From positions 2,431,249 through 2,495,248 of the forward strand of contig OZ241886.1 in the NCBI GenBank assembly GCA_965203375.1: DNA of 64,000 nt. Reading direction: 5' to 3'. Position 1 is the first letter of the stretch. Each line of letters opens with the position of its first letter. Shown here piece after piece: positions 13,519-64,000 of this stretch. A model generated the notes under the pieces. It was given only the letters and a program-made list of their open reading frames with translations, made no database searches and was not told the origin of the DNA. A program made the position numbers and the translations under genes. Origin of the DNA: Candidatus Aldehydirespiratoraceae bacterium. Its GTDB lineage: Bacteria; Actinomycetota; Acidimicrobiia; Acidimicrobiales; Aldehydirespiratoraceae.

Positions 13519-13766
13519 GAGCTGGTCGAGGTTGCCTCCGCCCCGCCGCCGCTTGTCCGGCCGGCGGGTCCTGTCACGGGCGCGGATTTCGCCGCGGAGG
13601 CGGCGAAATCCTTGCCCCCGTGCCACCCCCCGGCCTGGCGGATCGCCCGCGGGGGATTCGCCCTCCTGGAGCTGCTGGCCCTCTGGGAGCGGCTGGTCTT
13701 CCGTCGGCGGCTGGCCTTCTGGGAGTGGCTGATCCAGCGGTGAAGAGCCTTGTGAGGGAGGGGAGC

Positions 13767-26349: not shown

Positions 26350-27347
26350 GCCGCCCGCACCCTGGGGTCGAGCCACGAGTAGAGCAGGTCCACCACGAAG
26401 TTGACCACCACGAAGCCGACCGCGATCACCACCACCGCGGCCAGCACCACCGGGAAGTCGTCGCGGATCACCGCGGTGACGATCTCCCGGCCGATGCCGG
26501 GTATGCCGAAGATCTGCTCCACCACCAGCGAGCCCCCGATGAGGGTGCCGGTGTTGAGGCCGAACACGGTCACCATCGAGAACATGGAGGGCCGCAAGGC
26601 GTGGCGGAACATGATCCGGACCGGGGTGAGCCCCTTGGCCCGGGCCATGTGGACGAAGTCCTCTTGGAGGGTGGTGATGAGGTCGGTGCGCAGCAGCCGC
26701 TGGTAGGCGGCGGCCAGCGGCAGCCCCAGGGTGACCGCGGGCAGGATCAGCGACCGGAGCCGCACCAGCAGGCCGGCGTCGTCAAAGGCGGAGGGGAGGA
26801 CGCTCCAGCGCAGGGTGAACAGGTACAGCAGCACCACGCCCATGGCGAAGACCGGCACCGACAGCAGCCCGAAGGACCCGATGGTGGAGGCCCGGTCGAA
26901 GGAGCGGTTGGCCCGGTAGGCCGAGGCCACCCCCCAGGGGATGGATACCCCCAGCGCCACGGCCTGGGCCATGGCCATCAGCAGCAGCGACTCGGGGAAC
27001 TTCTCCCGGAGCACCTCGCCCACCGGCTGGTTGTTCTGGAACGAGGTGCCGAAGTCGCCCCGGATCAGATCGCCGAGCCACAGGAAGTAGCGGGGGGCCA
27101 GGGGTCGGTCGAGGTGGTATTCGGCCCTGGCCTCGGCGATTATCTCGCAGTCGCCCTTGGGGTTGAGCGACGTGGACCGGTCCTCGGCCGCGCCGGCGTA
27201 GACCTCGGTGCAGTCCTTCTCGGCCAGCGGGCCGACGATGTTGACCAAGGGGTCGCCCAGCACGTTCAGGGCCGCGAAGGCGGTGAAGGTGACGGCCAGA
27301 AGGACCAGCACCAGCATGGCTGCTCGCCGGGCCACGAACCCGGTCAC
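26346..27347 (-). CDS. peptide ABC transporter permease (DppB/OppB-like)
   Basis: typical DppB N-terminus and TM layout. Confidence 0.85.
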   Translation of the reverse strand: MTGFVARRAAMLVLVLLAVTFTAFAALNVLGDPLVNIVGPLAEKDCTEVYAGAAEDRSTSLNPKGDCEIIAEARAEYHLDRPLAPRYFLWLGDLIRGDFGTSFQNNQPVGEVLREKFPESLLLMAMAQAVALGVSIPWGVASAYRANRSFDRASTIGSFGLLSVPVFAMGVVLLYLFTLRWSVLPSAFDDAGLLVRLRSLILPAVTLGLPLAAAYQRLLRTDLITTLQEDFVHMARAKGLTPVRIMFRHALRPSMFSMVTVFGLNTGTLIGGSLVVEQIFGIPGIGREIVTAVIRDDFPVVLAAVVVIAVGFVVVNFVVDLLYSWLDPRVRAA

Positions 27348-27354
27348 GGCGACG

Positions 27355-27500
27355 GCCCCCGCCGGGCGAACCCGGTCCGGGCGACGAACCTGGTCACGGC
27401 GCTGACCGGGGCCGGGCGAACCCGGTCACGGCGACGGCCCCCGCCGGGCGAACCCGGTCACGGTGCTGACCCGGGCCGGGCGGACCGGGATGTGCCCGTC
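27355..27500. repeat. intergenic array of ~42-bp hairpin-containing repeats (x3.5) between SBP and permease genes
   Basis: GACCGGG-GCCGGGCGAA-CCCGGTC units at ~27362, 27404, 27446, 27478. Confidence 0.6.
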
Positions 27501-27521
27501 ACGGAGCGGCGGCGGGCGGGG

Positions 27522-37752: not shown

Positions 37753-39090
37753 ATGTTCGAAGCATTCAAGACCTTCATCGACACACTGAACGGCTCCGAT
37801 GTGGGGGCCTTGGACCGGGCCGGGCTGGACGAAGCCGCCGGCTGGACCAAGCGGGCCCGCTCGGCCCTCGACGCCTACGAAGCCCGGCTGCTGACCGCCG
37901 CCAACCGGGCCTTCGACGGCGGCGCGGCCGGCGCCGAACTGATGCGAACCGCCGCCGGATGCTCCCAGCGCGAGGCCCGCCGCCGGGCCCGCCGAGCCGA
38001 AACCCTGGCCGACATGCCCGCCGTGGCCCAAGCCCTGTCGGATGGCGCCATCACCGCCGAACACGCCGACGCGTTGGTGAAGGCCGCCGAGGCCACCTCG
38101 ACAGCGGCGGTGGACGCCGACCCGTCCCTGCTGGCCAAGGCCGAGTCGCTGCCCGCCGATTTGGCCGCCCGAGAGGTCGCGGATTGGGCTCACCGCCGCC
38201 AATCCGAACAAGACCGCGAAGCCAAGCTCCGCCGCCAGCGGGCGCTGCGCAGCCACCGAACCTGGATCGACGCCGACGGCATGTTCAACACCAGAGGCCG
38301 CTTCGACCCCGTCACCGGCGCCAGCATCCGAGCCGTCATCGACGACACCGCCAACCGCCTCTACCGAACCGACGGAGGCCGAGACGGCGGCAACAAAATC
38401 CGCACCTGGGACCAGCGCAACGCCGACGCCCTAGCCGCCGCCCTAGGAGTGATCCCCACCCCCGTGACAGGACCCGCCGGCCGGGACAACCCGCAACCCG
38501 CCAGCCGAGATGAACACCAACTTGCCATCACGAACCGGCACGGCCCCAGCCTGCGCAACCAGATCCTCGTCATCGCCCACACCGACGCCATCACCGGCGC
38601 CGACCCCGACGCCCCCTGCGAAATCCCCGGAACCGGCCCCATACCCCGCTCTGAACTCGAACGGCTTGCCTGCGAGTCGGAATTGTTCGGAATCCTCTTC
38701 GACGGCCGCGGCCTGCCCCTATGGCACGGACGACGAACCCGAACCGTCACCCCCCAGCAATGGCGAACCCTGGTAGCCCGAGACCGCGGCTGCGTCCTCT
38801 GCGGCACCAACCCCTCCTACTGCCACGCCCACCACATCGTGCCATGGACCGCCCCCGCCGAAGGCCCCACCGACATCGACAACCTCGTGCTGGTCTGCAA
38901 CCGGCACCACCACCACATCCACCAACACCACCTCACCCTCACCCGCCACCCCGACGGCCACTGGACAACGGCCGACTCCAGCCACCGAAAACCCGCCCAC
39001 AGCAACCACCACAACAACGGCACGAGACCGGCTAGCCGCGACCACACTCCGGCAGCCAAGCCGCCAACCGGTATCAGAGCCGGACCATGA
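37753..39090 (+). CDS. DUF222 + HNH endonuclease (REP13E12-family-like)
   Basis: N-terminal DUF222-like region; C-terminal HNH (CVLCGTNPSYCHAHHIVPW...DNLVLVCNRHH). Confidence 0.8.
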   Translation: MFEAFKTFIDTLNGSDVGALDRAGLDEAAGWTKRARSALDAYEARLLTAANRAFDGGAAGAELMRTAAGCSQREARRRARRAETLADMPAVAQALSDGAITAEHADALVKAAEATSTAAVDADPSLLAKAESLPADLAAREVADWAHRRQSEQDREAKLRRQRALRSHRTWIDADGMFNTRGRFDPVTGASIRAVIDDTANRLYRTDGGRDGGNKIRTWDQRNADALAAALGVIPTPVTGPAGRDNPQPASRDEHQLAITNRHGPSLRNQILVIAHTDAITGADPDAPCEIPGTGPIPRSELERLACESELFGILFDGRGLPLWHGRRTRTVTPQQWRTLVARDRGCVLCGTNPSYCHAHHIVPWTAPAEGPTDIDNLVLVCNRHHHHIHQHHLTLTRHPDGHWTTADSSHRKPAHSNHHNNGTRPASRDHTPAAKPPTGIRAGP

Positions 39091-39127
39091 CCACCGAGGC
39101 CCCGGGGCCGGGTTTGGCAGCCGATCC

Positions 39128-39225
39128 GCCAGGCCGGGGGTGGCACGGGGGCAAGGTTTTTGCCGCCCCGCGGCGAAAACCGCGCCCGTGACAGGACCCG
39201 CCGGCCGGGACGAACGGCAACGACC
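39128..39225. repeat. ~110-bp dispersed repeat, copy A
   Basis: 5' box GCCAGGCCGGGGGTGGCACGGGGG, G(T)nGCCGC...GCGGC(A)nC hairpin, 3' box CCCGTGACAGGACCCGCCGGCCGGGACGA (also present inside the HNH gene at 38462-38490). Confidence 0.6.
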
Positions 39226-39302
39226 TACACGGAACAGCCGCCTCAGCCGGGACCAGCCCCCCGGCCGGAGCGGACAGCGGCCCGGCGGTTTAGTCTTGGC
39301 CC

Positions 39303-41985: not shown

Positions 41986-42072
41986 AGAACACTCCTCAAC
42001 GGTTGTGGTCACCAATGTAGCCACAACATGAATGTAACAGCGATGCCGGGTGATCCCGTTACTTGAATCCCA

Positions 42073-42185
42073 TGCGCCAGGCCGGGGGGTGGCACGGGGG
42101 TTAGCGTCGGCGCCGCTCGCGGCGACGACCGCCCCCGTGACAGGACCCGCCGGCCGGGACGATCCGCAACCGCCCGCGACGGACA
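42073..42185. repeat. ~110-bp dispersed repeat, copy B
   Basis: same 5' box, hairpin and 3' box as copy A. Confidence 0.6.
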
Positions 42186-42239
42186 ATCCCAGAAGTCGAA
42201 TCTCCGAGAGATCGGCGACCCGGCACCTAGGCTCAGACC

Positions 42240-48565: not shown

Positions 48566-49072
48566 TCAGGGCAGGAACCGGCTGACCGACTCGACCACGC
48601 AGGCCGGCTTCTCCGCGCCCTCGATCTCCACGGTGATGGTGATGACCGCCTGCACTCCCCCGCCGGGCAGTTCGGATACCTCGGTGACCACGGCCGAGCC
48701 CCGAACCCTAGACCCCGCCGTCACCGGATGCGGGAACCTCACCCGGTTGACGCCGTAGTTGATCCCCATCGAGATCCCCTCCACCCGCATGACCTCCGGG
48801 AGGAAGAGGCTGGTGAGGGCCAGGGTCAGATAGCCGTGGGCGATAGTGGCCCCGAACGGCCCCTTCGCCGCGGCCTGCGGATCGACGTGGATCCACTGGT
48901 GGTCGCCGGTGGCCTCCGCGAACAGGTTTATGCGGTCCTGGTCGATGGTGATCCAGTCGCTGTTCCCGAGATGGCGGCCGACGGCGCCGAGCAGTTCCCG
49001 GGGGGAGGCGAACACGGCAGTCACCCGCCCGACGCTACCGGGCCACCGGCCGAGGTCACCGGCCGAGGTCAC
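48566..49072 (-). CDS. MaoC-like (R)-hydratase / hot-dog fold protein
   Basis: hot-dog fold, ...DHQWIHVD...GATIAHG. Confidence 0.75.
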   Translation of the reverse strand: MTSAGDLGRWPGSVGRVTAVFASPRELLGAVGRHLGNSDWITIDQDRINLFAEATGDHQWIHVDPQAAAKGPFGATIAHGYLTLALTSLFLPEVMRVEGISMGINYGVNRVRFPHPVTAGSRVRGSAVVTEVSELPGGGVQAVITITVEIEGAEKPACVVESVSRFLP

Positions 49073-49095
49073 CGGCCGAGGTCACCGGCCGCCCT
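49041..49095. repeat. 13-bp direct repeat x3.5 (ACCGGCCGAGGTC) in divergent promoter region
   Basis: four consecutive units overlapping the putative MaoC start. Confidence 0.7.
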
Positions 49096-51131: not shown

Positions 51132-52103
51132 ATGAGCACAAATGACATGGGCTTAGACACGGACACATTCGGGCCGGTAGTAGCTGCCGGCTGGCTGGCC
51201 GACAACCTCGACTCGGTGGTGGTCGCCGACGTGCGGTGGTACCTGGACGGCCGCTCGGGCCGGGACGCCTACGACCGGGGCCACCTGCCGGGGGCCCGCT
51301 TCGTGGACCTCGACACCGACCTATCCGGGCGCTCCACAACCGTCGGGGGCCGCCATCCCCTGCCCGACCCCAACCGCTTCGCCGAGGCCATGGGCCGCCT
51401 CGGCATTGGCGACGGCGACCCGGTGGTGGTCTACGACGACGCCGGCGGGGTGATCGCGGGTCGGATGTGGTGGATGCTCGACTCGCTGGGACATCCCGCG
51501 GCGGTGCTCGACGGCGGCATCGGGGCCTGGGCCGGGCCGCTGGAGACGGCCCCGGCCGCCTGGGCGCCGGCTGAGTTCACCCCCCGGCCCTGGCCCGAGA
51601 ACCGCTTCGTCGGCATCGACGAGATGGACCGCCTCCGGGACCGGCCCGGCGCCGTGGTCATCGACGCCCGCTCGCCCGAGCGCTACCGGGGCGACCCCAA
51701 CCCCATCGACCCCCGCTTCGGCCATGTGCCCGGGGCGCTGAACATGCCCGCCACCGCCAACCTGGCCGCCAACGGCAGGCTGCTGCCCGCGACCGAACTG
51801 CGGGCCCGCTACACGGCCATCGGCGCCGCCGAACCGGGCGCAGAAACACCAGGCGCCGAGGCGGAAACATCGGGCGCAGAAACACCGGGCGCAGAATCCC
51901 CCGACCCAGGGGCGTCCAACTCCTCCAACATCATCGCCTACTGCGGCAGCGGCGTGTCGGCCTGCTGCGATCTGCTGGCCCTGCGCCGGGCCGGACTGGG
52001 CAACGGGCGGCTGTTCGTGGGGTCGTGGTCGGCCTGGGGCGCCGATCCCGCCCGGCCCGTCGAAACCAGCCAGCCTGCGGTCGGCGGCAGCCACGGCGGT
52101 TGA
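51132..52103 (+). CDS. two-domain rhodanese sulfurtransferase (3-mercaptopyruvate-ST-like)
   Basis: active-site loop CGSGVSA; low-complexity PGAE insertion. Confidence 0.8.
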   Translation: MSTNDMGLDTDTFGPVVAAGWLADNLDSVVVADVRWYLDGRSGRDAYDRGHLPGARFVDLDTDLSGRSTTVGGRHPLPDPNRFAEAMGRLGIGDGDPVVVYDDAGGVIAGRMWWMLDSLGHPAAVLDGGIGAWAGPLETAPAAWAPAEFTPRPWPENRFVGIDEMDRLRDRPGAVVIDARSPERYRGDPNPIDPRFGHVPGALNMPATANLAANGRLLPATELRARYTAIGAAEPGAETPGAEAETSGAETPGAESPDPGASNSSNIIAYCGSGVSACCDLLALRRAGLGNGRLFVGSWSAWGADPARPVETSQPAVGGSHGG

Positions 52104-52159
52104 TGCCGCCAGCCGCCACCGACACCGGCGCCGACCCGCTGCGCCCAAACCCCGCCTGA
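52103..52159 (+). CDS. leader mini-ORF 1 (18 aa, MPPAATDTGADPLRPNPA), copy of the Ppx N-terminus
   Basis: ATG shares A with rhodanese TGA; its own TGA shares A with the next ATG. Confidence 0.4.
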   Translation: MPPAATDTGADPLRPNPA

Positions 52160-52215
52160 TGCCGCACCCAGCCACCGACACGGGCGCCGACCCGCTGCGC
52201 CCAAACCCCGCCTGA
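52159..52215 (+). CDS. leader mini-ORF 2 (18 aa, MPHPATDTGADPLRPNPA)
   Basis: second 56-bp tandem unit; TGA overlaps Ppx ATG (TGATG). Confidence 0.4.
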   Translation: MPHPATDTGADPLRPNPA

Positions 52216-53966
52216 TGCCGCACCCCGCCACCGACACGGGCGCCGACCCGCTGCGCCCAGACCCCAAACCGCTGGCCGCCATCGACGTGGGCACCAACTC
52301 GGTACACATGGTGGTGGCCCGGCCCGTTCCCGGCGGTCCGCCCGACTTCCTGGCCACAGAACGCATGCCGGTGCGGCTGGGCTCGGGCGGCAACGACATG
52401 AAGCGGCTCCACCCCGACGCCGTCGACCGGGCCGTGGCCGCCCTCGACGAGTGCCGCCGCATCGCCGAGGCCCACCAGGCCGACGTGGTGGCGGTGGCCA
52501 CCAGCGCGGTGCGCGAGGCGGCCAACGCCGCCGACTTCCTGCGCCGGGCCCGCACCGAGGCCGGCGTGGCGGTGGAGGTGGTGTCGGGGGTGGAGGAGGC
52601 CCGCCTGATCCACCTGGGGGCCATGAGCGCGGTGCCCATCGCGGGCCGGCCCCATCTGGTGATCGACATCGGGGGCGGGTCCACCGAGGTGATCGCCGGC
52701 ACCGGCACCGAGCCGGCCCTGGCCCGCAGCCTGAAGCTGGGCCACATCCGCCTCACCGACCGGTTCTTCCCCGGCGGAGTCGTCAAGCCCGGGGCGGTGA
52801 AGTCCTGCCGCCGCCACATCCAGTCCTTCATCGCCCCGTTCCTGCGGGAGATGCCCGAGTTCGAGACGGCGGTGGGCTGCTCGGGCACCATCGAGGCCCT
52901 GGCCCTGATGGGGGCGGCCCGCCGGGGCGCGCCCCTGCGGACGGTGGGCAACGCCGCCCTCGCCCGCGGTGACCTCGACGCGGTGGTGGCCGACCTCGTG
53001 TCCCGTCCCCGCCCGGCCGACCGGGCCGGGGCGCCCGGACTCGACCCGGGCCGGGCCGAGGTGATCGTGGCCGGCGCCGTCCTGCTCCGCCAGATGTTCA
53101 AGGCCCTGGGCATTCGCACCCTAACCGTGTCCACCGGGGCGCTGCGGGAGGGGCTGCTGCTGGACAGGTTTCACCGGAGGGACCGGTCGCCGGCCCGCGG
53201 GCTGCACCACCTCAACGACCTGCGGCGGTCCAGCGTGCTGGCCGTCGCCCGCCGCTACGACCAGGACCTCGCCCACGCCGAGCACTCCACCAACCTGGCC
53301 CTGGAGCTCTTCGACGAGACCCGGCCGATCCACGGGCTGGACGAGGCCGAGCGGGAGGTGCTGGAGGCGGCCGGGCTGCTGCACAACATCGGGCGGTTCG
53401 TGGCCCACGCCGCCCACCACCAGCACTCCTACTACCTGATCCGCCACAGCGAGCAGCTCGCCGGGTTCACCGAGAACGAGCTGGAGCTGATCGCCCAGGT
53501 GGCCCGCTACCACCGCAAGAGCGCCCCCCGCAAGTCCCACCCGAGCTTCGCCGGGCTGGACCGGGCCGATCAGCGGCGGGTCCGGCTGCTGGCCGGGATG
53601 CTGCGGGTGGGGATCGCCCTGGACCGCACCTACCGGCGTGCGGTGCGCCACGTCTCCGCCGACACCGACGACCGGGGCCTGCGGATCGCAGGTCCACACG
53701 ATCGCCGGCACCGACGCCGAGCTGGAGATGTTCACCGCCCGGGACCGCTGCGGCCTGCTGGCCGACGCCCTGGACCGCCCGGTGCGCTTCGAGATAACGC
53801 CATACGGCCTCGGGCAGTCCGGGCAAACCGAAGCCGCCGCGGCGACCGAGACCGCGCCGTCGGCCCTCAGCCGCAGAGCCGGATGACGCCACCGGACCGC
53901 CCCGGCGTGCTTTCCAGGCTGGTTCCAGGCCGGGCGCGATCCCAGCTCAGCCGCAGGGCTGGATGA
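52215..53966 (+). CDS. Ppx/GppA exopolyphosphatase with C-terminal HD domain; probable frameshift near 53687-53692
   Basis: AIDVGTNSVHMVVAR actin-like ATPase fold N-terminus, HD region HN.G..V....HH; after ~53690 the +1 frame (53638..53886) reads protein-like while frame 0 becomes Arg/Pro junk. Confidence 0.75.
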   Translation: MPHPATDTGADPLRPDPKPLAAIDVGTNSVHMVVARPVPGGPPDFLATERMPVRLGSGGNDMKRLHPDAVDRAVAALDECRRIAEAHQADVVAVATSAVREAANAADFLRRARTEAGVAVEVVSGVEEARLIHLGAMSAVPIAGRPHLVIDIGGGSTEVIAGTGTEPALARSLKLGHIRLTDRFFPGGVVKPGAVKSCRRHIQSFIAPFLREMPEFETAVGCSGTIEALALMGAARRGAPLRTVGNAALARGDLDAVVADLVSRPRPADRAGAPGLDPGRAEVIVAGAVLLRQMFKALGIRTLTVSTGALREGLLLDRFHRRDRSPARGLHHLNDLRRSSVLAVARRYDQDLAHAEHSTNLALELFDETRPIHGLDEAEREVLEAAGLLHNIGRFVAHAAHHQHSYYLIRHSEQLAGFTENELELIAQVARYHRKSAPRKSHPSFAGLDRADQRRVRLLAGMLRVGIALDRTYRRAVRHVSADTDDRGLRIAGPHDRRHRRRAGDVHRPGPLRPAGRRPGPPGALRDNAIRPRAVRANRSRRGDRDRAVGPQPQSRMTPPDRPGVLSRLVPGRARSQLSRRAG

Positions 53967-54810
53967 CCGAGCGGCCGAAGTCGGCCAGGGCCTCCTCGGT
54001 GTGGCGGAAATAGCGGAAGGCCGGCGCCAGCAGCCGGTGTACGCCCCACGACTCGGCCTCAGCCACCGCGGCGGACGGGTCGTCGCCCAGCAGCCCGGGA
54101 TGGAACGTGGTCACCTCGATCGATGCGGGGTCCCGGCCGGCCTCGGCCGCCTCGGCCCGGGCCATCTGGGCCAGGGAGGCCACGTCCCCCTCGGCCGGGA
54201 AGAAGCCGTCGCCCACCCGGCCAGCCCGGCGGGCCGAGGCCGGGCTATGGCCGCCGATGTGGACCGGCACCCGGCCCGCGGCCGGCTTGGGGTTGGAGCT
54301 GACCCGCTCGAACGACACGAACTCGCCCTCGAAGGACACGTCGTCCTCGGCCCACACCCGCCGCATCACCTCCAGGTACTCCTCGGTGCGGGCCCCCCGC
54401 CGGGCCCAGGGCACGCCCAGTGCCTCGAACTCCTCCCGCAGCCAGCCCACGCCGATCCCCAGCTCCACCCGTCCCCCCGACATGGAGTCGACGGTGGCCA
54501 CCTCCTTGGCGAAGACGAGGGGGTGGCGCTCGGCCAGCAGCGAGATGCCGGTGGCCAGCCGGATTTCGGAGGTGGCGGCGGCCACGTGGCCCAGCCAGGC
54601 CAGCGGGTCGGGGATGGGGTTGCGGCCCGACCCCGGCATCTTCCCGCTGGGCCCGTAGGGGTACACCGACTCGTACCCCTCGGGGTAGACGACGTGCTCC
54701 ACCGTCCACAGCGACTCGAACCCGGCCGCCTCGGCCGAGGCGGCCAGCTTGACGGCCCCGGGCCCGGAGGCGAAGGGCCCGGTGTTGGCGAACCCGATGC
54801 CGAACTTCAC
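53947..54810 (-). CDS. LLM-class (luciferase-like) F420-dependent oxidoreductase
   Basis: MKFGIGFANTGPFASG...; LLM fold. Confidence 0.8.
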   Translation of the reverse strand: MKFGIGFANTGPFASGPGAVKLAASAEAAGFESLWTVEHVVYPEGYESVYPYGPSGKMPGSGRNPIPDPLAWLGHVAAATSEIRLATGISLLAERHPLVFAKEVATVDSMSGGRVELGIGVGWLREEFEALGVPWARRGARTEEYLEVMRRVWAEDDVSFEGEFVSFERVSSNPKPAAGRVPVHIGGHSPASARRAGRVGDGFFPAEGDVASLAQMARAEAAEAGRDPASIEVTTFHPGLLGDDPSAAVAEAESWGVHRLLAPAFRYFRHTEEALADFGRSVIQPCG

Positions 54811-54863
54811 CGCACCCCCGCTCTATCCAATCGCCGCCAATCCGAGCGGTACCCTAACCAGCC

Positions 54864-54938
54864 GTGACCGGACCCGGCCCCCTCACCGCCTCGACCAACC
54901 ACCCCGGACCAACCTCGATCAAAGACATCGAACCGTGA
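54864..54938 (+). CDS. leader mini-ORF (24 aa, VTGPGPLTAST...) duplicating the aminotransferase start
   Basis: GTG 54864; TGA 54936-54938 overlaps GTG 54935 of the main ORF (GTGA). Confidence 0.35.
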   Translation: MTGPGPLTASTNHPGPTSIKDIEP

Positions 54939-56206
54939 CCGGACCCGGCACCCTCAACCACGTCGACACCGAAGCCGACTCGGCTGCCCTTGACCGCGGA
55001 GACAGCAGGGCCGACCCGACCGCCTTCCACCGCGCCGACGCCGGAGCCGACCCGGTCGCCTTCGATCACGTCGACGTCGGGGGCAAGCGCAGCCCCCACA
55101 ACGCCAAGTGGTCCCAATACGGCCCCGACGTTCTGCCGGCCTGGGTGGCCGAGCACGACTTCCGCCAGCCCGACTCGGTGATAGAGGCCATGCGGGCCAC
55201 GATCGACCGGGGCGAGCTGGGCTATCACCGCCGCGACTCTGAGGTGGCCGAGGCCTTCGGGGGCTGGGCCCGGTCCCGCTACGGCTGGGACCCCGACCCG
55301 GCGCTGGCCGCGGTGTGCGTGGACGCCCTCCAGGGCGTCGTCGCCGCGGTCACCGCACTGGCCGGCCCCGGCGAGGGGGTGATCCTGACGCCGCCCGTCT
55401 ACCACGTGTTCTGGCAGATCTGCCCCACCTCGGGGCGGCGGCCGGTGGAGTGGCCGATGCGGCAAGGCCCCGGCGGATGGCGCCTCGACCCCGACGACCT
55501 CGAAGCGGTGGCCGCGGCCGACCCCGGCGCCAAGGTGCTGTTGCTGTCGCACCCCCAGAACCCCACCGGCCGGGTGGCCGACCGAGACACCCTGGCCCGC
55601 ATCGTCGAGGTGGCCCGCGATCGCGGCCTCTACGTCGTGTCCGACGAGATTCACGGCGACATGGTGTACCCCCCGGCCGAATTCGTGCCCATGCTGTCGC
55701 TGGACGGCGCCGCCGACCGGGTGATAACCGTGACCTCGCCGGCCAAGACCTTCGCCCTGTCGGGGCTGCGCTGCGCCCTAACCGTCTTCGGCTGCCCGGA
55801 GCTGCGCCGCCGGGTGATCGAGGCCCACCCTCCCCTGCTGCTGGGCCACGCCTCCCGGACGGGCATCGACGCCTCGGTGGCGGCCTGGACCGAGGGCGGG
55901 GCCTGGGCCGACCGGCTGCTCGACCAGCTCCGGGCGAACCGCGACCATCTGGCCCGGCGGCTGGCGGCCGAGGCCCCGGCGGTGCGGATGCACCTGCCGG
56001 AGTCGACGTTTCTGGCCTGGCTGGACGTGTCGGCCTGCGGCCTGGGCCACCGGCCCGCCGCCGCCCTGCTGGAGCGGGCCCGGGTGGCGCTGCTGGAGGG
56101 AACCGAGTTCGGGACCGGCGGCGAAGGCTGCGTGCGGCTCAACTTCGGGACGTCTGAGGCGCTGCTAGACGCCATAATAGACCGGCTCATCCCCCATCTG
56201 CGATGA
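54935..56206 (+). CDS. MalY/PatB-family PLP-dependent C-S lyase / aminotransferase
   Basis: FDHVDVGGKRSPHNAKW (PatB-type N-terminus), PLP-lysine context; start uncertain, GTG 54935 is the only nearby candidate. Confidence 0.75.
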   Translation: MTGPGTLNHVDTEADSAALDRGDSRADPTAFHRADAGADPVAFDHVDVGGKRSPHNAKWSQYGPDVLPAWVAEHDFRQPDSVIEAMRATIDRGELGYHRRDSEVAEAFGGWARSRYGWDPDPALAAVCVDALQGVVAAVTALAGPGEGVILTPPVYHVFWQICPTSGRRPVEWPMRQGPGGWRLDPDDLEAVAAADPGAKVLLLSHPQNPTGRVADRDTLARIVEVARDRGLYVVSDEIHGDMVYPPAEFVPMLSLDGAADRVITVTSPAKTFALSGLRCALTVFGCPELRRRVIEAHPPLLLGHASRTGIDASVAAWTEGGAWADRLLDQLRANRDHLARRLAAEAPAVRMHLPESTFLAWLDVSACGLGHRPAAALLERARVALLEGTEFGTGGEGCVRLNFGTSEALLDAIIDRLIPHLR

Positions 56207-58341
56207 CCGACCACCAGGGCCGTAGGTTCGAAATGCTCTTGCAGCGGTGTCCGTGGCTGGCTTGCGCGCTGTTTGTGGGAGTCGCGCTCGTCCATAACGA
56301 TACCCCCACCCCGCAGGATACAGTCTGGACCGCCCAAGCGACGACACCGGCCGAGACGACGGTGCAAGACTCGGCTAGATTATTAGGATCTATTGCCCCA
56401 GTTGAGGACGATCAAGGTTCGGATAAGGGCTCGATAGTTTTGTCATGGCCTAATCTTGGTGATACTTCAATCACTCATTATCAGTATAGATTCAGGAGTG
56501 CATCAAAGGCAGGGTACGGTCCGTGGATAGATGTTCCCTTCAACTATGAGACCACCACTGTAAATACCATCACCAACCTTAAAACGGATATGGCCTATCA
56601 TATACGATATCGAGCCTGCAGGCCGACCAAATGCGGAATTGCGAGAGTTAAATGGCATGTAAGAGCTTGCAACACGGGCGAATGTAAAGCTAAAAAGCTT
56701 CAAATAAGGGTTCCAGTGTTTCCGTCGGATGTTCCCCCTCCACCTGGTTTCTGGTTCTTAGACGATGACGGCAGTATCCACGAGGGCGCCATTGAGGCAC
56801 TCGCGGCCGTGGGCGTCGCCCGAGGGTGCCGATACGACCTCTATTGCCCCGATGAGGAGGTGACCCGCGGCCAGTTCGCCGCGCTATTGGCGCGGGCCTT
56901 TCCCGGCTTGGTCCCCGACGACGCCGACGACTTCTTCGGCGACGACGACGGCAGCGTCCACGAGGCCGCCGTCAACGGCCTCGCCGCTGCGGGGATCGCG
57001 AGCGGCTGCGGGCCGGGCCGTTACTGCCCCGCCGAACCGATGACCCGAGCCCAGATGGCGACACTGCTGGCCCGGGCCCTCCCCGGTTTGGCTTCCCCCG
57101 ACCGGGATCATTTCTCCGATGACGACGGGACCGTCCATGAGGTCGCCATCAACGCGTTGGCCGAAAACGGCATCGTCTCCGGCTGCGGACCGGGCCGGTA
57201 CTGCCCCGACGATCCGATGCGGCGCGATCAGGCGGCGACGCTGCTGGCCCGGGCACTGGACCTGAAGCCGACCCAGCCTGAGCCGAGCCCGTGGCGGCTC
57301 GAGCCGGTGGCCGACGGCATCGACGGCGGCCCCACCGACCTCCAAGCCCCAGACGGCGACGACCGCTTGTTCCTGGCAACCAAACAGGGGGCGATCCTCA
57401 TAATCGCCGACGGCGCCCTATTGACCGAACCGTTTCTTGACTTGACCAGCGAAGTCATGTCCGCGGGCGGCGAACAAGGTCTGCTCGGGATGGCATTCCA
57501 CCCCCACTACGACACCAGCTTCAGGTTCTATGTCTTTTATACCGACTTAGACGGCCATAGCCAAATATATGAGTACCGGACCGACCCCGAGAACCCGAAC
57601 CAGGCCGACGCTTCCACCGCCCGTCACATCATCACCATCGAACAGACCAACGCTATACATATGGGCGGACAGCTTCAATTCGGCGCTGACGGCTACCTAT
57701 ACATAGCCGTCGGTGACGACCTGCTCTCTAACAACGGACAGAACCCCAGAACAGCGCCGGGAACCATCCTCCGCATAGATATAGACGACGTCGACTCCTA
57801 CTCGATTCCTGCCGACAACCCCTTCGCCGACGGCCAAGAAGGTCTACCCGAAGTCTGGGCCTACGGGCTGCGTAACCCCTGGCGATTCAGCTTCGACGGC
57901 TCCAACATCTACATCGCTGATGTAGGGCATAATGAACGAGAGGAAATCAACATCGTCGACACCTCAAGGGGTGGAATAAACTACGGCTGGCCCATCGTGG
58001 GTGATACCCAATGCATCAACTCAAACTCGAACTGCGCCGGACTGTTCACCCCTCAAATCGAATACTACCGCAACGATGGGTTTGCCGTCATCGGCGGCTA
58101 CGTATATCGAGGCACCGCCATAGGTGAGATGACCGGCCGATACTTCTACTCCGACATCAGCGGCCGATGGATCCGCACCTTCGCCTACCAAGACGGCGAG
58201 ATCACCGAGCACTATGACTGGTCCCAGGCGATCGAAGATCTCGGGCAGGTGTGGTCATTCGGCAAAGACGGCCACGGAGAGCTCTACGTGCTGACCAGCG
58301 ACGCCGTCTACAAGATCGCCCCCGCTAGCCTCAACCCATGA
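56203..58341 (+). CDS. surface protein paralog 1: TM/signal + FN3 + 3 SLH-like repeats + PQQ-type soluble sugar dehydrogenase beta-propeller
   Basis: ATG overlaps aminotransferase stop (ATGA); SLH-like FSDDDGS.HE.AI..LA..GI..GC....YCP....TR.Q.A.LLARA x3; propeller motifs GLLGMAFHP, GGQLQFGADGYLY, GLRNPWRFSFD, GGINYGWP. Confidence 0.75.
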   Translation: MTDHQGRRFEMLLQRCPWLACALFVGVALVHNDTPTPQDTVWTAQATTPAETTVQDSARLLGSIAPVEDDQGSDKGSIVLSWPNLGDTSITHYQYRFRSASKAGYGPWIDVPFNYETTTVNTITNLKTDMAYHIRYRACRPTKCGIARVKWHVRACNTGECKAKKLQIRVPVFPSDVPPPPGFWFLDDDGSIHEGAIEALAAVGVARGCRYDLYCPDEEVTRGQFAALLARAFPGLVPDDADDFFGDDDGSVHEAAVNGLAAAGIASGCGPGRYCPAEPMTRAQMATLLARALPGLASPDRDHFSDDDGTVHEVAINALAENGIVSGCGPGRYCPDDPMRRDQAATLLARALDLKPTQPEPSPWRLEPVADGIDGGPTDLQAPDGDDRLFLATKQGAILIIADGALLTEPFLDLTSEVMSAGGEQGLLGMAFHPHYDTSFRFYVFYTDLDGHSQIYEYRTDPENPNQADASTARHIITIEQTNAIHMGGQLQFGADGYLYIAVGDDLLSNNGQNPRTAPGTILRIDIDDVDSYSIPADNPFADGQEGLPEVWAYGLRNPWRFSFDGSNIYIADVGHNEREEINIVDTSRGGINYGWPIVGDTQCINSNSNCAGLFTPQIEYYRNDGFAVIGGYVYRGTAIGEMTGRYFYSDISGRWIRTFAYQDGEITEHYDWSQAIEDLGQVWSFGKDGHGELYVLTSDAVYKIAPASLNP

Positions 58342-60719
58342 CCTCCGATCGAACAGCCCACCCGTCTTGCACGCGCGTTGAAATCATGTGCATCGTTATC
58401 TGCTTCTTGATCTGTGCGCTAGTCGCCGGACTGTTACCACAAATGGTAATTCCCCGTACGGCTCATGCTCAGGCCGCGAACAATGCGGCGGTTCCAGGGG
58501 AACCGTGTGGGTTGTCGGCTGTGGGTAGGAACGGCTCGGGTTCTGGCGATGGTTCAATTGTCCTGTCATGGGATGATCCCGGCGACTCTTCAATCAATGG
58601 TTATCAGTACCGGCTGAGGACCCCTGATACGTCTGAAGAATACGGCTCGTGGATCGACATCCCTGGCAGCGGAGCCTCCACCACCGGCCACACCATCACC
58701 GGCCTTAACAACCACACGCGCTATAATGTGCGGCTGCGGGCTGGCAACACAGCCGGGTGGGGGGCCAGTCGGGTCTATTTTAGTGCTCGGACGACCACGG
58801 TTCCTGCCACCACTGCGACATATGTTCCAAGCCGGCCGGTCCTATTGGCCTCGTCTTTCTACGACGGCACCATTACCATTGCCTGGGATTGCCCGCGGAC
58901 GCAAGACCAAGTCCTCTGGTACCAATACCGATACAAGATCGGGCCCGGCATGTGGTCAGACTGGATTACATTGCCACCGACGGACCGCAGCCTTACCCTG
59001 GCCGTCCTGGACCGTGACACTCGGCACTACGTGGTTCTGCGAGCCGTCAACAGCGCGGGCTTCGGCAGCAGCATCTTAGCCTTTCCCCGGGTTCCCCCTC
59101 CACCTGGTTTTTGGTTCTCAGACGACGATGGGAGCATCCACGAGGGCGCTATTGAGGCCGTCGCCGCCGCGGGCGTCGCCCCGGGTTGCCAGCACAACCT
59201 CTATTGCCCTGCCGATTCGATGACCAGGGCCCAGTTCGCTTCCCTCTTGGTACGAGCCTTCCCCGATCTGATCCCCGAAGACGCCGAAAACTATTTCAGC
59301 GACGACGACGGGACCGTTGACGAGAGTGCCATCAACCGGCTGGCCGCCGCGGGGATAACCGCGGGCTGTGGGCCCCGGCGGTATTGCCCCGACGATTCGA
59401 TGACCCGGGCCCAGGCGGCGACGCTGCTGGCCCGGGCCCTCTCCGGCCTGGCTCCGCCCGACCGGGATCATTTCTCCGACGACGACGGGACCGTCCATGA
59501 GATCGCCATCAACGCGTTGGCCGAAAACGGCATCGTCTCCGACTGCGGGGCGGGCCGGTACTGCCCCGACGATCCGATGCGGCGCGACCAAGCGGCGACA
59601 CTGCTGGCCCGGGCCCTCAACCTGGAGCCGACCCAGCCGGCACCGAGCCCCTGGCAACTCGAGTCGGTGGCCGACGGCATCGACGGCGGCCCCACCGACC
59701 TTCAGGCCCCAGCCAGCGACGACCGCTTGTTCCTGGCAACCAAACAGGGGGCGATCCGCATAATCGCCGACGGCGCCTTATTGCTCGAACCGCTCCTCGA
59801 TTTGACCGGCAAAGTCAATTCCGAGACCGTCGAAGAAGGCCTGCTCGGGCTGGCCTTCCACCCCCACTACGCCACCAACCACAAGTTCTATGTCTTTTAT
59901 ACCGACTTAGACGGTCACAATCAGGTCTACGAGTACAGGACCGACCCCTCCGACCCCAACCGGGCCGACTCCTCCACCGCCCGCCACATCATCACCTTCA
60001 CCCAGGAATGCCTCTGGCACAATGGCGGACAGCTCCAATTCGGTGCCGACGGCTACCTATACATAGCCGTCGGCGACGGAGCATGCTTCAATCTTGGCAA
60101 CAAGCCAGAAACTTTGGACCAAACCCCCCACAACATCCTAGGGACCATCGTTCGCATAGATGTAGACAATGGTGACCCCTACTCGATTCCTGCCGATAAC
60201 CCCTTCGCCGACGGCCAAGATGGCCTGCCAGAAGTGTGGGCCTACGGACTGCGCAACCCCTGGAGATTCAGCTTCGACGGCCCCAACATTTACATCGCTG
60301 ATGTAGGGCACCACGAACGGGAGGAGATCAACATCGCCGACGTCTCAAGGGGCGGAATAAACTACGGCTGGCCCATCGTGGGTGATACCCAATGCATCAA
60401 CTCGAACTCGAACTGCGCCGGACTGTTCACCCCTCAAATCGAATACTATCGCAACGATGGGTTCGTCGTCATCGGCGGCTACGTATATCGAGGAACTGCC
60501 ATAGGTGAGATGGTCGGCCGATACTTCTACGCCGACTACACCGGATGGATACGCACCTTCGCCTACCAAGACGGCGAGATCACCGAGCACTATGACTGGT
60601 CCCAGGCGATCGAAGATCTCGGGCAGGTGTGGTCATTCGGCAAAGACGGCCACGGGGAGCTCTACGTGCTGACCAGCGACGCCGTCTACAAGATCGCCCC
60701 CACTAGCCTCAACCCATGA
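58338..60719 (+). CDS. surface protein paralog 2: signal peptide + 2 FN3 + 3 SLH-like + PQQ-type dehydrogenase propeller
   Basis: ATGA overlap with paralog 1 stop; signal peptide ending AHAQA; same domain order. Confidence 0.75.
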   Translation: MTSDRTAHPSCTRVEIMCIVICFLICALVAGLLPQMVIPRTAHAQAANNAAVPGEPCGLSAVGRNGSGSGDGSIVLSWDDPGDSSINGYQYRLRTPDTSEEYGSWIDIPGSGASTTGHTITGLNNHTRYNVRLRAGNTAGWGASRVYFSARTTTVPATTATYVPSRPVLLASSFYDGTITIAWDCPRTQDQVLWYQYRYKIGPGMWSDWITLPPTDRSLTLAVLDRDTRHYVVLRAVNSAGFGSSILAFPRVPPPPGFWFSDDDGSIHEGAIEAVAAAGVAPGCQHNLYCPADSMTRAQFASLLVRAFPDLIPEDAENYFSDDDGTVDESAINRLAAAGITAGCGPRRYCPDDSMTRAQAATLLARALSGLAPPDRDHFSDDDGTVHEIAINALAENGIVSDCGAGRYCPDDPMRRDQAATLLARALNLEPTQPAPSPWQLESVADGIDGGPTDLQAPASDDRLFLATKQGAIRIIADGALLLEPLLDLTGKVNSETVEEGLLGLAFHPHYATNHKFYVFYTDLDGHNQVYEYRTDPSDPNRADSSTARHIITFTQECLWHNGGQLQFGADGYLYIAVGDGACFNLGNKPETLDQTPHNILGTIVRIDVDNGDPYSIPADNPFADGQDGLPEVWAYGLRNPWRFSFDGPNIYIADVGHHEREEINIADVSRGGINYGWPIVGDTQCINSNSNCAGLFTPQIEYYRNDGFVVIGGYVYRGTAIGEMVGRYFYADYTGWIRTFAYQDGEITEHYDWSQAIEDLGQVWSFGKDGHGELYVLTSDAVYKIAPTSLNP

Positions 60720-60751
60720 CCTCCGATCAACCTGCTCATCCCCCACCTGCA

Positions 60752-62868
60752 ATGACCGACCACCAGAGCCGTAAATTCAAAATGCTCTTGCTGAGATGTC
60801 CGTGGCTGACTTGCGCACTGTTTGCGGGAATCGCGTTCGTCCATAACAATACCCCCCCCCGCAGGATGCGGTCCAGACCGCTCAAGCGGCGACACCGTCC
60901 AAGACGATGACACAAGATTCGGCTAAATTAGTGGGATCAGTTGCCTCAGTTGAGGATGATCAAGGTTCGAATAAGGGCTCGATAGTTTTGTCATGGTCTA
61001 ATCCTGGTAATCCTTCAATCACTCATTATCAGTATCAATTCAGAAGTGCATCAGAGGTAGGATACGGTCCGTGGATTGATATTCCTGACAGCAGAGCGTC
61101 CACTACTGAATATACCATCACCGGCCTTAGAACCAATGCAATATATAATGTAAGACTTAGAGCCTGTAAGAGATCTGTATGTTGGGATTTCAGTAGTTTA
61201 TGGCATGTAAGAGTCTGTGAAATGACCGAATCGACCAAATGTGAAGTTACTGCGATAGGCTACCCAGTGATCGCGCCAACTGTTCCCCCTCCACCTGGTT
61301 TCTGGTTCTCAGACGATGACGGCAGCCGCCATGAGGGGGCCATTGAAGCTCTCGCGGCCGCGAGAATCGCATCTGGGTGCGGACGGCACCTTTATTGCCC
61401 CGCTGAGGAGACGACCCGGGGCCAGTTCGCCTCGCTGTTGGCGCGGGCCTTCCCCGACTTGGTCCCCGACTACACCGGAGACTTCTTCGGCGACGACAAC
61501 GGCAGCGTCCACGAGGCCGACATCAACAGGCTGGCCGCAGTGGAGATCGCGGCCGGCTGCGGGCCGAGCCGGTTCTGCCCCGACGACCCGATACGGCGCG
61601 ACCAAGCGGCGACGCTGCTGGCCCGGGCCCTCCCCGGCCTGGCTCCGCCCGAACGGGATCACTTCTCCGACGACGACGGCAGCATCCACGAGATCGCCGT
61701 CAACGCCATGGCCGAAAACGGCATCCTCGCCGGCTGCGGGCCGAGCCGGTTCTGCCCCGACGACCCGATACGGCGCGACCAGGCCGCGACCCTGCTCGCC
61801 CGGGTCCTCAACCTGAATCGGGCCGAACCTCAACTAAGCCTGTGGCGGCTCGAGCTAGTGGCCGACGGGATTGTCGGCGGCGTCACCGACCTGCAGGCCC
61901 CCATCGGCGACGACCGGGCATTTCTGGCCACCAGACGAGGGATGATCCGTGTGATGGCCGACGGCGCCCTTTTACCCGGGCCATTCCTCGACTTGACCAG
62001 TAAAATCTCAGGGGGCCTGTTCGGGCTGGCCTTCCACCCCCGCTACGACACCAACGGCAAGTTCTACGTCTTCTATATTGCCTTAGACGGCAACATCCGA
62101 ATATACGAGTACCGGGCCGACTCCGAGAACCCCAACCGGGCCGATCCTTCGACCGCCCGCCACATCGTCACCATAGAGCGAGACACAAGTACTCACCACG
62201 GAGGGCAGCTCCAATTCGGTCCTGATGGCTACCTATACATCGGCATCGGTGACAACAACAACCCCGAAAGCAGTCAGAATTTGCAAACCGCGCATGGGAC
62301 CATCCTCCGCATAGATGTAGACAACGGTGAACCCTACTCCATCCCTGCCGATAACCCCTTCGCCGACGGCCAAGATGGCCTACCTGAAGTGTGGGCCTAC
62401 GGGCTGCGCCATCCTTGGCGATTCAGCTTCGACGGCCCCAATATCTACATCGCCGACGTGGGAGATGTCCACATTGAGGAGATCAACATCGCCAAGGCTT
62501 CCCAGGGTGGAATAAACTACGGCTCGCCGGTCATGGACGGCTCCATATGCGTCAGTCCAACCTCAAACTGCGCCGGGCTGTTCACTCCTCAAATCGAATA
62601 CTACCATGCCCAGGGTTTTGCCGTCATCGGCGGCTACGTATACCGAGGCACTGCCTTACCTGAAATGGTCGGCCGATACTTCTACTCCGACTACACCGGC
62701 GCATGGATCCGCACATTCCTCTACAACGACGACGGCGAGGTGACAGAGCACTACGACTGGTCCTCAGCAGTCGAAAACGTCGCGCAGATGCAGTCATTCG
62801 GCAAAGACGGCCACGGAGAGCTCTACGTGCTGACCGGCTACGCCGTCTACAAGATCGTCCCCCGCTAG
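60752..62868 (+). pseudogene. surface protein paralog 3, interrupted by a frameshift at a C9 homopolymer (60852-60860)
   Basis: N-terminal TM segment (60752-60860) and body (ATG 60907 onward) lie in different frames; a C10 tract would restore a full-length reading frame homologous to paralog 1. Confidence 0.6.
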
Positions 62869-62877
62869 CCTCAGCCC

Positions 62878-64000
62878 ATGATCTCCGATCGCCAGGCCCA
62901 CCCGTCCTGCAATCGCCTTCAAATGGGTCGGGGCATAGAAATCCCGGCCGGTTCGGCCAGCATTAGGTCCTGGCCAGCCTCTGGTATTGTCAAGATAGCC
63001 CACGGTGCATGCGATGATCGGGAACGGCGCAAGACCCATATGCCTCGTTTGACTACTTTACTGGTCTGTGCGCTGATCGCTGGACTATTGTCACAAGTGA
63101 CAACTCCCGTAGTAGTCCATGCTCAGGCGGCGAGCAATGCGGCGATTCCAAGAGAACCGTGCATGGTGTCTGCAACCACTGAAGACGTAGTTTCACGGCC
63201 AAGACGACCGGTCCTATTGGCCTCGTCTTTCTACAGCGGCACCATTACTGTCGCATGGGACTGCCCGCGGGCGCAAGACCAAGTCCTCTGGTACCAATAC
63301 CGCTACAAGATCGGGCCTGGCATGTCGTCAGGCTGGATTAAATTGCCACCGACGGCTCGTAGCCTGACCCTGACCGTCCTGGACCGTGACACCCGGCACT
63401 ACGTGGTTCTGCGAGCCGTCAACAGCGCGGGTCCAGGCAACAGTGTCTTAGCCTACCCCCGGGTTCCCCCTCCACCTGGTTTCTGGTTCTCCGACGACGG
63501 CGGGAGCGTCTACGAGGGCGCTATTGAGGCCGTCGCCGCCGCGGGCATCGCCCCCGGGTGCCGACACAACCTCTATTGCCCCGCCGATCCGATGACCAGA
63601 GGCCAGTTCGCTTCCCTCCTGGTACGAGCCTTCCCCGACCTGATCCCCGACGACGCCGAAAACTACTTCTCCGACGACAACGGGACCGTCCACGAGATCG
63701 CCATCAACCGGCTGGCCTCCGCGGGTATAACCGCGGGCTGCAAGCCGGGCCGGTACTGCCCCGCCGATCCGATGCGGCGCGACCAAGCGGCGACGCTGCT
63801 GGCCCGGGCCCTCCCCGGCCTGATTCCGCCCAACGGGGATCATTTCTCCGACGACGACGGGACCGTCCACGAGATCGCCATCAACGTGTTGGCTGAAAAC
63901 GGCATCGTCTCCGGCTGCGGGCCGGGCCGGTACTGCCCCGCCGATCCGATGCGGCGCGATCAGGCGGCGGCGCTGCTGGCCCGGGCCCTCAACCTGGAGA
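62878..64000 (+). CDS. surface protein paralog 4 (paralog-2-like, one FN3), 3'-partial at window edge
   Basis: no stop in frame from 62878 to the window end; alternative start ATG 63040 (MPRLTTLLVCALIAGLL...AQAA signal peptide). Confidence 0.6.
   Translation, partial: MISDRQAHPSCNRLQMGRGIEIPAGSASIRSWPASGIVKIAHGACDDRERRKTHMPRLTTLLVCALIAGLLSQVTTPVVVHAQAASNAAIPREPCMVSATTEDVVSRPRRPVLLASSFYSGTITVAWDCPRAQDQVLWYQYRYKIGPGMSSGWIKLPPTARSLTLTVLDRDTRHYVVLRAVNSAGPGNSVLAYPRVPPPPGFWFSDDGGSVYEGAIEAVAAAGIAPGCRHNLYCPADPMTRGQFASLLVRAFPDLIPDDAENYFSDDNGTVHEIAINRLASAGITAGCKPGRYCPADPMRRDQAATLLARALPGLIPPNGDHFSDDDGTVHEIAINVLAENGIVSGCGPGRYCPADPMRRDQAAALLARALNLE

Follow-up and report, generated by a model that had tools for sequence, protein, structure and literature searches.

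In Mycobacterium tuberculosis, leaderless small open reading frames (ORFs) coupled to the next gene through an RTGA tetranucleotide (R is a purine) are enriched over chance, and it is their architecture, not their peptide, that is conserved (Shell et al. 2015, PMC4633059). They are 5 to 50 codons long, start without a Shine-Dalgarno sequence beside a -10 element and end on a TGA that shares the last two bases of the downstream RTG; their proposed role is to deliver ribosomes downstream. The MIRU ORFs are coupled at a -4 spacing (PMC12548453). In the MIRU literature (Supply et al. 1997, as related in PMC12548453, PMC3184786 and PMC9392950), MIRUs are one dispersed family of about 40-50 related copies, thought to be mobile; the MIRU-VNTR (variable-number tandem repeat) loci of M. 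tuberculosis are described there as lying at gene starts or operon junctions and as made of tandem units some tens of bp long, with strain-variable copy number, a mini-ORF per unit and a 4-nt coupling overlap, and the 77-bp senX3-regX3 unit leaves a remainder of two when divided by three (2 mod 3). RTGA-coupled small ORFs and MIRU-type mini-ORFs are thus known, but their origin is not established in the literature searched, and nothing specific was found there on the duplication of a start region as the source of an upstream ORF (uORF). Here we describe a uORF whose origin is visible. It lies in a window of 64,000 nucleotides (the whole stretch of DNA analysed) of contig OZ241886.1, from Candidatus Aldehydirespiratoraceae bacterium, before a gene for a PatB/MalY-type C-S lyase, and it is a frame-shifted duplicate of that gene's own first codons. 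Such local, length-variable duplications of a start region recur at three loci of the window, and we think it probable that they persist because termination-reinitiation passes ribosomes on to the real start.

The mini-ORF (VTGPGPLTASTNHPGPTSIKDIEP*; 54864-54938, + strand) runs for 24 codons from a GTG to a TGA at 54936-54938, which overlaps the lyase GTG at 54935 as GTGA (54935-54938). Lying upstream of an annotated gene, it falls in the small-ORF size class of 5 to 50 codons, and it cannot extend upstream, there being an in-frame TAA at 54855-54857 and no other in-frame NTG (N is any base). Its beginning is a direct repeat of the beginning of the gene: the head CCGTGACCGGACCCGGCCCCCTCA at 54862-54885 (+) has a second copy at 54933-54956 (+), which holds the true start codon of the lyase, and the two, spaced by 71 nt, are identical at 23 of 24 positions. 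None of 1000 dinucleotide-preserving shuffles of the region 54700-55250 reached this figure among matches within 200 nt, the best 24-mer match being 20/24. The other 56 nt of the upstream copy align weakly with the next 57 nt of the gene (score 4, against -3.8 +/- 3.7 for shuffles). The structure therefore reads as an old duplication with a conserved head, and the 71-bp unit said in the earlier note to occur twice is reduced to its head of about 24 nt, which is indeed repeated. The 24-codon uORF and GTGA overlap announced there can be read directly in the sequence, and the start region of the lyase gene is duplicated as claimed, the uORF head corresponding to the gene's first codons, which specify the MTG[PTA]G N-terminus of the orthologues.

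The gene itself (54935-56206, +; 423 aa, GTG start) encodes a class I/II enzyme dependent on pyridoxal 5'-phosphate (PLP) (Pfam Aminotran_1_2, PF00155, E = 3.9e-40), and the nearest solved structures are C-S lyases, PatB (6qp3, E = 1.3e-65) and MalY (1d2f, E = 2.7e-42). The AlphaFold2 (AF2) model (predicted TM score, pTM, 0.80) has a confident fold beyond residues 1-45. Residues S268-P269-A270-K271 are unchanged in all 33 sequences of the protein alignment (A3); K271 is presumably the Schiff-base lysine that binds PLP, as in the rest of the family. By fold and nearest structures, the protein is classed as a PatB/MalY-type C-S lyase, with putative cystathionine beta-lyase activity.

Several observations identify GTG 54935 as the true start of this gene. 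Orthologues of 57-95% identity begin with MTGPG, MTGTG or MTGAG followed by ...AFD.VDVG.KR, and the MTG[PTA]G N-terminus is still conserved in those of about 65% identity. Between 54935 and 55145 there is no ATG, GTG or TTG in frame, and the conserved core begins at about 55057. The in-frame NTG codons further upstream (TTG 54749, GTG 54782, TTG 54785 and ATG 54797) all lie within the divergent gene for a luciferase-like oxidoreductase (53947-54810, -; Pfam Bac_luciferase, E = 3.8e-62), which forms the other border of the intergenic region upstream of the lyase, so that a longer protein starting at TTG 54749 or ATG 54797 was rejected. Relatives vary upstream of the lyase GTG by indels of 35 and 71 nt, neither of which is divisible by three; in L019, L025 and L033 an in-frame TAA stands two codons ahead of the GTG, and in L022 there is no upstream in-frame NTG before it. 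The contention that this GTG is the sole plausible start is thus upheld; the codon at 54749, given as ATG in the earlier note, reads TTG, and comparison with the orthologues revealed no use of 54749 with a conserved protein sequence. Gene callers choose the right lyase start at this locus, and the small upstream ORFs are unfit for annotation as conserved peptides.

The close relatives of the window are uncultured Acidimicrobiales. The luciferase-like/lyase synteny is kept in all of them, and the gene order rhodanese - Ppx - luciferase-like (-) - lyase - glucose-sorbosone dehydrogenase (GSDH) in those with long flanks, the shorter loci displaying just the parts of this order that they cover. 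The uORF exists among them in three states. It is missing in L019/L020/L021, L025, L001 and L033, where the GTG that follows the conserved upstream block described below is the enzyme's own start. A 35-nt form of 12 codons, ending in GTGA, is found in L023/L024 and L026/L027, and the 71-nt form of 24 codons in the window, in L018 and in L022 (GTGA). The uORF always ends in RTGA: in L018 the GTG of the main start has been swapped for ATG and the overlap kept, as ATGA. The 71-nt and 35-nt forms are exactly one 36-nt unit apart, between two GGACC motifs. Strains in which the uORF is present, absent or half-length are 88-95% identical in the lyase gene.

The comparison with L033 is the most telling. 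This strain, a sister to the window and L018, has a core gene 95% identical in nucleotides to that of the window and no uORF; its intergenic region together with the first 18 nt of its gene matches the intergenic region and uORF head of the window at 70 of 71 positions. The start context of the window uORF is thus one from which, as judged from these sequences, a sibling strain demonstrably starts a gene, since the near-identical start of L033 makes the whole enzyme. The derivation of L033 through a simple deletion from the uORF head to the fourth unit of the array described below was rejected, because such a deletion would be out of frame. In a neighbour-joining tree, uORF-bearing lineages are interleaved with uORF-free ones; the element would therefore be old and repeatedly lost, or else moved between strains by recombination. 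In L023, the two heads are identical over 23 nt, which suggests gene conversion. When JGI metagenome contigs were scanned for the exact pattern GGTACCNTAACCAGCCGTGACCGG, there were 0 matches, and the lineage seems limited to ENA, Logan and NCBI assemblies. Metagenome assemblies can mishandle repeats, and one might ask whether assembly or sequencing made these. The odds of this are negligible: the repeat copies show divergence, independent assemblies have these structures in common (L023 from ENA and L024 from Logan; L026 and L027), and the N-terminus of P0245, a protein encoded on a 3.74-Mb contig, is identical to that of the window lyase.

The uORF bodies of the window and of L022 are homologous (score 22, against -4.2 +/- 3.6 for shuffles) and come from strains whose core genes are 89% identical. 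They differ at 17 of 56 positions (70% identical), the differences being spread 8/5/4 over the three codon positions; in the core gene, third positions are 83% identical. The uORF shows no frame-breaking indel, while the non-coding stretch upstream of the -10-like element differs by 10 nt. This pattern indicates that the peptide is not under selection and that the head, the length class and the junction are kept. It also bears on the possibility that the uORF encodes a regulatory leader peptide, which would sense an amino acid or a metabolite and control, in the manner of an attenuator, a lyase of sulfur amino acids. The enzyme does belong to Cys/Met metabolism, in mycobacteria the Cys-rich leaderless small ORFs that precede Cys genes have been predicted to be attenuators (PMC4633059) and are treated as regulatory small ORFs in PMC9094748, and four of the five uORF forms end in Pro-UGA. 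We nevertheless consider such a role very unlikely. Neither enrichment in Cys or Met nor runs of these residues occur in the mini-ORF peptide, so that regulatory codons are lacking; the changes in its body fall at all codon positions, its length flips between 12 and 24 codons, and the whole uORF is absent from a 95%-identical sibling. The + strand has no terminator at the locus (a single terminator-like match lies on the minus strand), the folding of the RNA from 54862 to 54990 is nothing unusual (z = -0.72) and yields no stable alternative structure of the terminator/antiterminator kind, and an Rfam search was negative both for the locus (E up to 1) and for the whole window at gathering thresholds.

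The start of the uORF resembles those of the mycobacterial small ORFs in its surroundings. A -10-like hexamer of the TANNNT type, TACCCT (54850-54855, +), lies 8 nt upstream of GTG 54864 within the block GGTACCCTAACCAGCC. This block directly precedes the GTGACCGG... start in all close relatives, L033 included, with TACCAT for TACCCT in L001; in an alignment of 8 lineages (A1), T5, A6, C7, C8, T10, A11, A12, C13, A15, G16, C17 and C18 and the GTGACC are invariant. There is no purine-rich Shine-Dalgarno sequence between TACCCT and GTG 54864. A scan for E. coli-type promoters found no match, which is expected at this G+C content and tells little. The arrangement TACCCT-N8-GTG without a Shine-Dalgarno suggests a leaderless or nearly leaderless mRNA transcribed from a putative promoter at this hexamer. 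The 20 nt before GTG 54935 contain neither a Shine-Dalgarno nor a TANNNT sequence, and the same is true of its counterparts in L018, L022, L023 and L026. The likeness to the small ORFs of Shell et al. extends to size, start, junction, a kept architecture without a kept peptide, and the proposed role. Unlike those, the present uORF is only presumed to be leaderless and translated, and it belongs to uncultured Acidimicrobiales, not to a mycobacterium; its origin is visible, and it is present, absent or half-length among closely similar strains.

A few observations concern the same start region. TACCCTA (54850-54856) is the reverse complement of TAGGGTA, so that the same 7 bp carry a TANNNT hexamer on both strands and could hold a pair of overlapping divergent -10 elements, one for the lyase and one for the luciferase-like gene; a G-rich stretch resembling a Shine-Dalgarno precedes the GTG of the luciferase-like gene. 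In L028, which carries an orthologue of about 65% identity, the start context is TAGCTT-N8-GTG, and the sequence upstream (1000-1200) appears, by eye, to hold a long internal duplication. In L004 (Ilumatobacter; minus strand, about 782-830), starts of the GTGACGCCGGCAC.. type recur at offsets of 16 and 32 nt.

The lyase uORF is not the sole construction of this kind in the window. The leader of the Ppx gene (52101-52217, +) contains two mini-ORFs built on a 56-nt unit, 2.9 copies of which, at 52101-52265, copy the N-terminal codons of Ppx. The TGA of the rhodanese gene (52101-52103) overlaps an ATG at 52103, from which 18 codons lead to a TGA at 52157-52159; this overlaps the ATG at 52159, which opens another 18 codons ending at the TGA at 52213-52215, and the latter overlaps ATG 52215, the start of Ppx. 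With its three 56-nt units and TGATG junctions, this leader bears out the suggestion that lyase and Ppx share one design. The relatives vary in how many units they have and in how long these are: one in L018 (with ACG for ATG), none in L019, two ATGA-linked ORFs in L022 and one TGATG-linked ORF in L001. The third locus is an ABC permease leader (27344-27525, -), a relay of five mini-ORFs of 8, 14, 11, 11 and 17 codons, every junction of which is GTGA. It spans the 174-nt spacer between the stop of a substrate-binding-protein gene (SBP_bac_5; TGA 27524-27522) and the permease GTG at 27347; the mini-ORFs start at 27525, 27502, 27461, 27429 and 27397, and Tandem Repeats Finder (TRF) reports periods of 32 and 50 there. 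This leader is variable as well: an intact chain of 8, 23 and 6 codons in L032 (94% identical), no mini-ORFs in L031 (82%), where a GGGGGAG Shine-Dalgarno motif takes their place, and in L030 (95%) no coupled chain detected by script, manual reading giving ORFs of 8, 12 and 8 codons.

Both leaders call for some remarks of detail. The Ppx ORF (52215-53966, +) is 583 aa long in the window, against 525-561 aa in relatives, and its C-terminal tail is rich in Arg and Pro and looks out of frame, possibly through a frameshift or a repeat expansion; a 25-nt tandem match lies inside Ppx at about 53010-53055. In the permease leader, the GTG of every unit is immediately followed by a CCGGG-TTCG-CCCGG hairpin motif.

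The spacings at the three loci obey one rule. They are 71 nt (window, L018, L022) and 35 nt (L023/L024, L026/L027) at the lyase; 56, 56, 62 and 68 nt at the Ppx leader, with a further L022 link of 113 nt derived from called-gene coordinates; and 23, 41, 32, 32 and 50 nt at the permease leader. Every start-spanning period at these loci is 2 mod 3. The 53-bp MIRU units are also 2 mod 3. By contrast, 16 further TRF rows of the window all have periods divisible by three, and the sole exceptions besides are a 13-nt array (49044-49091) and the 25-nt match in Ppx. Stop-free frames are of little help as a coding test for the multiple-of-three arrays, since many frames are open at this G+C content. The opposition between 2 mod 3 at starts and multiples of three elsewhere may be taken as evidence from natural variation that coupling constrains which duplications survive. 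In about 160 kb of fetched loci, head-repeat/overlap structures occurred just in the close Acidimicrobiales relatives and at one Ilumatobacter locus.

The architecture shared with MIRUs, namely units of 40-100 bp that vary in copy number and hold an ORF, coupled at -4, whose ends overlap the stop and start codons of the flanking genes, raises the question of whether a small dispersed element carrying its own mini-ORF was inserted at the start codon, rather than the start region being duplicated locally. At the lyase the coupled unit is 71 nt, at Ppx 56 nt x 3 and at the permease 23-50 nt x 5, some being shorter than 40 bp; copy-number polymorphism takes the form of 0, 35 or 71 nt at the lyase and of variable units at the other two leaders. 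The window also contains a dispersed element with CCGTGACAGGACCCGCC, in four copies, that shares a 15/17 match with the lyase head repeat. In spite of these similarities, a mobile origin is improbable. The head of the unit is the conserved N-terminal coding sequence of the gene itself, which orthologues without a uORF have as well; no unit at one locus is related to those at the others, each instead matching the gene that follows it; and, the CCGTGACAGGACCCGCC element apart, the 17-mer has no other copy (with up to 2 mismatches) in the window. Thus, in contrast to the MIRUs as known from the sources cited above, the units here are locus-specific and derived from the gene downstream, with no dispersed copies within the 64 kb. 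The CCGTGACAGGACCCGCC element is a different thing, a hairpin of about 85 nt; a link with the lyase head repeat was considered and rejected, the 15/17 match standing alone, within a separate hairpin, and being probably due to chance. Its copies are at 13480-13700 (-), 39060-39280 (+) and 42010-42230 (+), with a partial one at 38462 (+); the hairpin is long (-61.6 kcal/mol, z = -4.7) and has no Rfam match.

These data can be accommodated in the following scheme. In the ancestral form, which sibling strains still have, the lyase GTG lay 8 nt after TACCCT, without a Shine-Dalgarno. A tandem duplication then repeated the start (GTGACCGGACCCGGC...) at a distance of 71 nt downstream. As 71 is 2 mod 3 and the gene begins with GTG-A, the promoter-proximal start now reads a 24-codon frame into the TGA of the GTGA. 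Ribosomes would load at the old start, make a functionless peptide, terminate on the UGA and restart at the GUG that overlaps it, a codon with no Shine-Dalgarno and no 5' end to itself. We infer a termination-reinitiation event at GTG 54935 precisely because this codon lacks a Shine-Dalgarno, a TANNNT element and, on the model, its own 5' end; any effect of the uORF on the level of lyase expression is likewise putative. More generally, in a gene beginning with RTG-A, a start duplication of 2 mod 3 would make the upstream frame terminate on the TGA of the downstream RTGA; one of 0 mod 3 would extend the protein, as the 36-bp array described below does, and after one of 1 mod 3 ribosomes would enter the gene in the wrong frame. 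Start-spanning duplications would thus survive just when the hand-over is kept, that is, with a period of 2 mod 3, and intragenic duplications just when they are in frame. The copy number of the uORF and that of the intragenic array drift between close strains, as in a VNTR. The junction chemistry is that of termination-reinitiation at NTGA and TGATG junctions within operons (reviewed in PMC12548453), with the difference that the upstream partner here is no functional gene but a mini-ORF that is not conserved, or as many as five of them in a chain. The related locus L002 couples this same lyase gene to an upstream gene in the operon fashion, the lyase GTG (about 2990-3003) and the TGA of the ORF before it overlapping as GTGA. 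At two further orthologue loci, the gene upstream of the lyase is a Band_7 one.

Several points weigh against this scheme. The leaderless status and the translation of the uORF are deduced from sequence, and the 8 nt that separate TACCCT from the GTG are near the upper limit of the usual spacing between a -10 element and the transcription start site, which could lie a few nt upstream of GTG 54864. The upkeep of the RTGA junction is trivial, its four bases being the start codon and the first base of a Thr codon. Some 23 GC-rich codons would be free of stops by chance in about 60% of cases by our estimate, and the upkeep of the frame rests on about three independent uORF lineages. In the permease leader of L030, the last link appears, on manual reading, to be broken (a TAA 13 nt before the GTG), so the overlap is not obligatory. 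Several close relatives do well without a uORF, which may be neutral rather than useful. One may then imagine that the uORF is a relic with no role and that GTG 54935 is initiated either through a second promoter within the duplicated segment, on a leaderless mRNA of its own, or by internal initiation independent of a Shine-Dalgarno. The lack of conservation of the peptide, the absence of the uORF in L033, L019, L025 and L001 with no visible compensation, the broken link apparently tolerated in L030 and the documented finding that M. tuberculosis translates short ORFs pervasively and without selection (PMC9094748) would all agree with it. We find this unlikely, although well ahead of the leader peptide and of the mobile element. 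It would leave GTG 54935 and its counterparts in L018, L022, L023 and L026 without any of the signals searched for in the 20 nt before them, and a purely neutral process would not yield start-spanning repeats that are all 2 mod 3 at three loci and in several lineages. Moreover, the upstream start has an intact context that is proven in a sibling, and a frame that did not terminate there would interfere with the main start. Reinitiation at the main start of ribosomes that have read the duplicated one thus remains the explanation that we prefer.

The gene has a second repeat, downstream of its start codon. Four units of 12 codons form an in-frame 36-bp tandem array (54941-55084, +; TRF 54942-55080, 3.9 copies, score 115), coding for GPGTLNHVDTEA / DSAALDRGDSRA / DPTAFHRADAGA / DPVAFDHVDVGG, the last of which runs into the conserved KRSPHNAKW core. 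The units are identical in pairs at 20-27 of 36 positions (56-75%). The 33-bp in-frame duplication of the earlier note is part of this array: the duplication in frame is real, its period being 36 bp. What is multiplied is the first conserved motif of the enzyme, F-D-x-V-D-V-G, at the extreme N-terminus. In the cluster at 90% identity around the closest relative of the window, proteins of 389/391, 401, 411, 423 and 447 aa correspond to about 1, 2, 3, 4 and 6 units (counted by manual reading), and the array can on this basis be regarded as a genuine VNTR. The predicted local distance difference test (pLDDT) score of the AF2 model is below 50 for residues 1-45, and homologues in the PDB align from residue ~50 onwards; the array is therefore predicted merely to lengthen a disordered N-terminal tail. 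The amino-acid tandem repeats of Borg elements (PMC9879509) are similar in that their period is divisible by three and that they evolve fast, vary in copy number and are predicted to be disordered. Unlike them, the 36-bp units are imperfect, lie in a bacterial chromosome and occupy the extreme N-terminus, where they duplicate a conserved motif. At the other end of the gene, the lyase stop TGA overlaps an in-frame ATG of the next ORF, an SLH/GSDH one (ATGA, 56203-56206); relatives call the SLH/GSDH gene some 150-620 nt further downstream (one has another neighbour), and this coupling may not be real.

Other repeats of the window deserve mention. The most striking is a perfect 30-nt array at 9174-9544 (12.4 copies, 100% matches, TRF score 742). 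Repeats with a 177-nt period (59 aa) in the SLH/glucose-sorbosone-dehydrogenase genes at 57003-63990 probably represent repeated SLH-type domains. The 13-nt array mentioned above is a perfect tandem repeat, GTGACCTCGGCCG x 3.7 (49044-49091, -), at the 5' end of a 168-aa ORF (48566-49072); as its period is not a multiple of three, each unit gained or lost would change the reading frame, in the manner of a contingency locus.

In its function, the lyase uORF looks like a member of the group formed by the RTGA-coupled small ORFs and the MIRU-type coupled mini-ORFs, a natural and variable device rather than a new kind of system. What distinguishes it from the known kinds is its visible origin from the gene's own start, its polymorphism in presence and length among strains, and the occurrence of three such loci in 64 kb. 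The relatives appear to form a series, from the plain start (L033, L019, L025, L001) through the 12-codon uORF (L023, L026) to the 24-codon one (window, L018, L022), and this natural allelic series of 0, 35 and 71 nt is fit for gauging how well a coupled mini-ORF hands ribosomes on to the next start and how small ORFs are born. A broader, tentative proposal, to which we would not yet subscribe, is that in this Acidimicrobiales lineage frequent duplications and a translational filter routinely build RTGA- or TGATG-linked chains, "ribosome relays" the copy number of which would be a heritable and reversible dial of translation, and that the same process gives birth to the coupled leaderless small ORFs of mycobacteria, and perhaps to MIRU-like units. 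If this were true, it would explain how the coupled small ORFs of mycobacteria are born, from the start region of the very gene that they precede.

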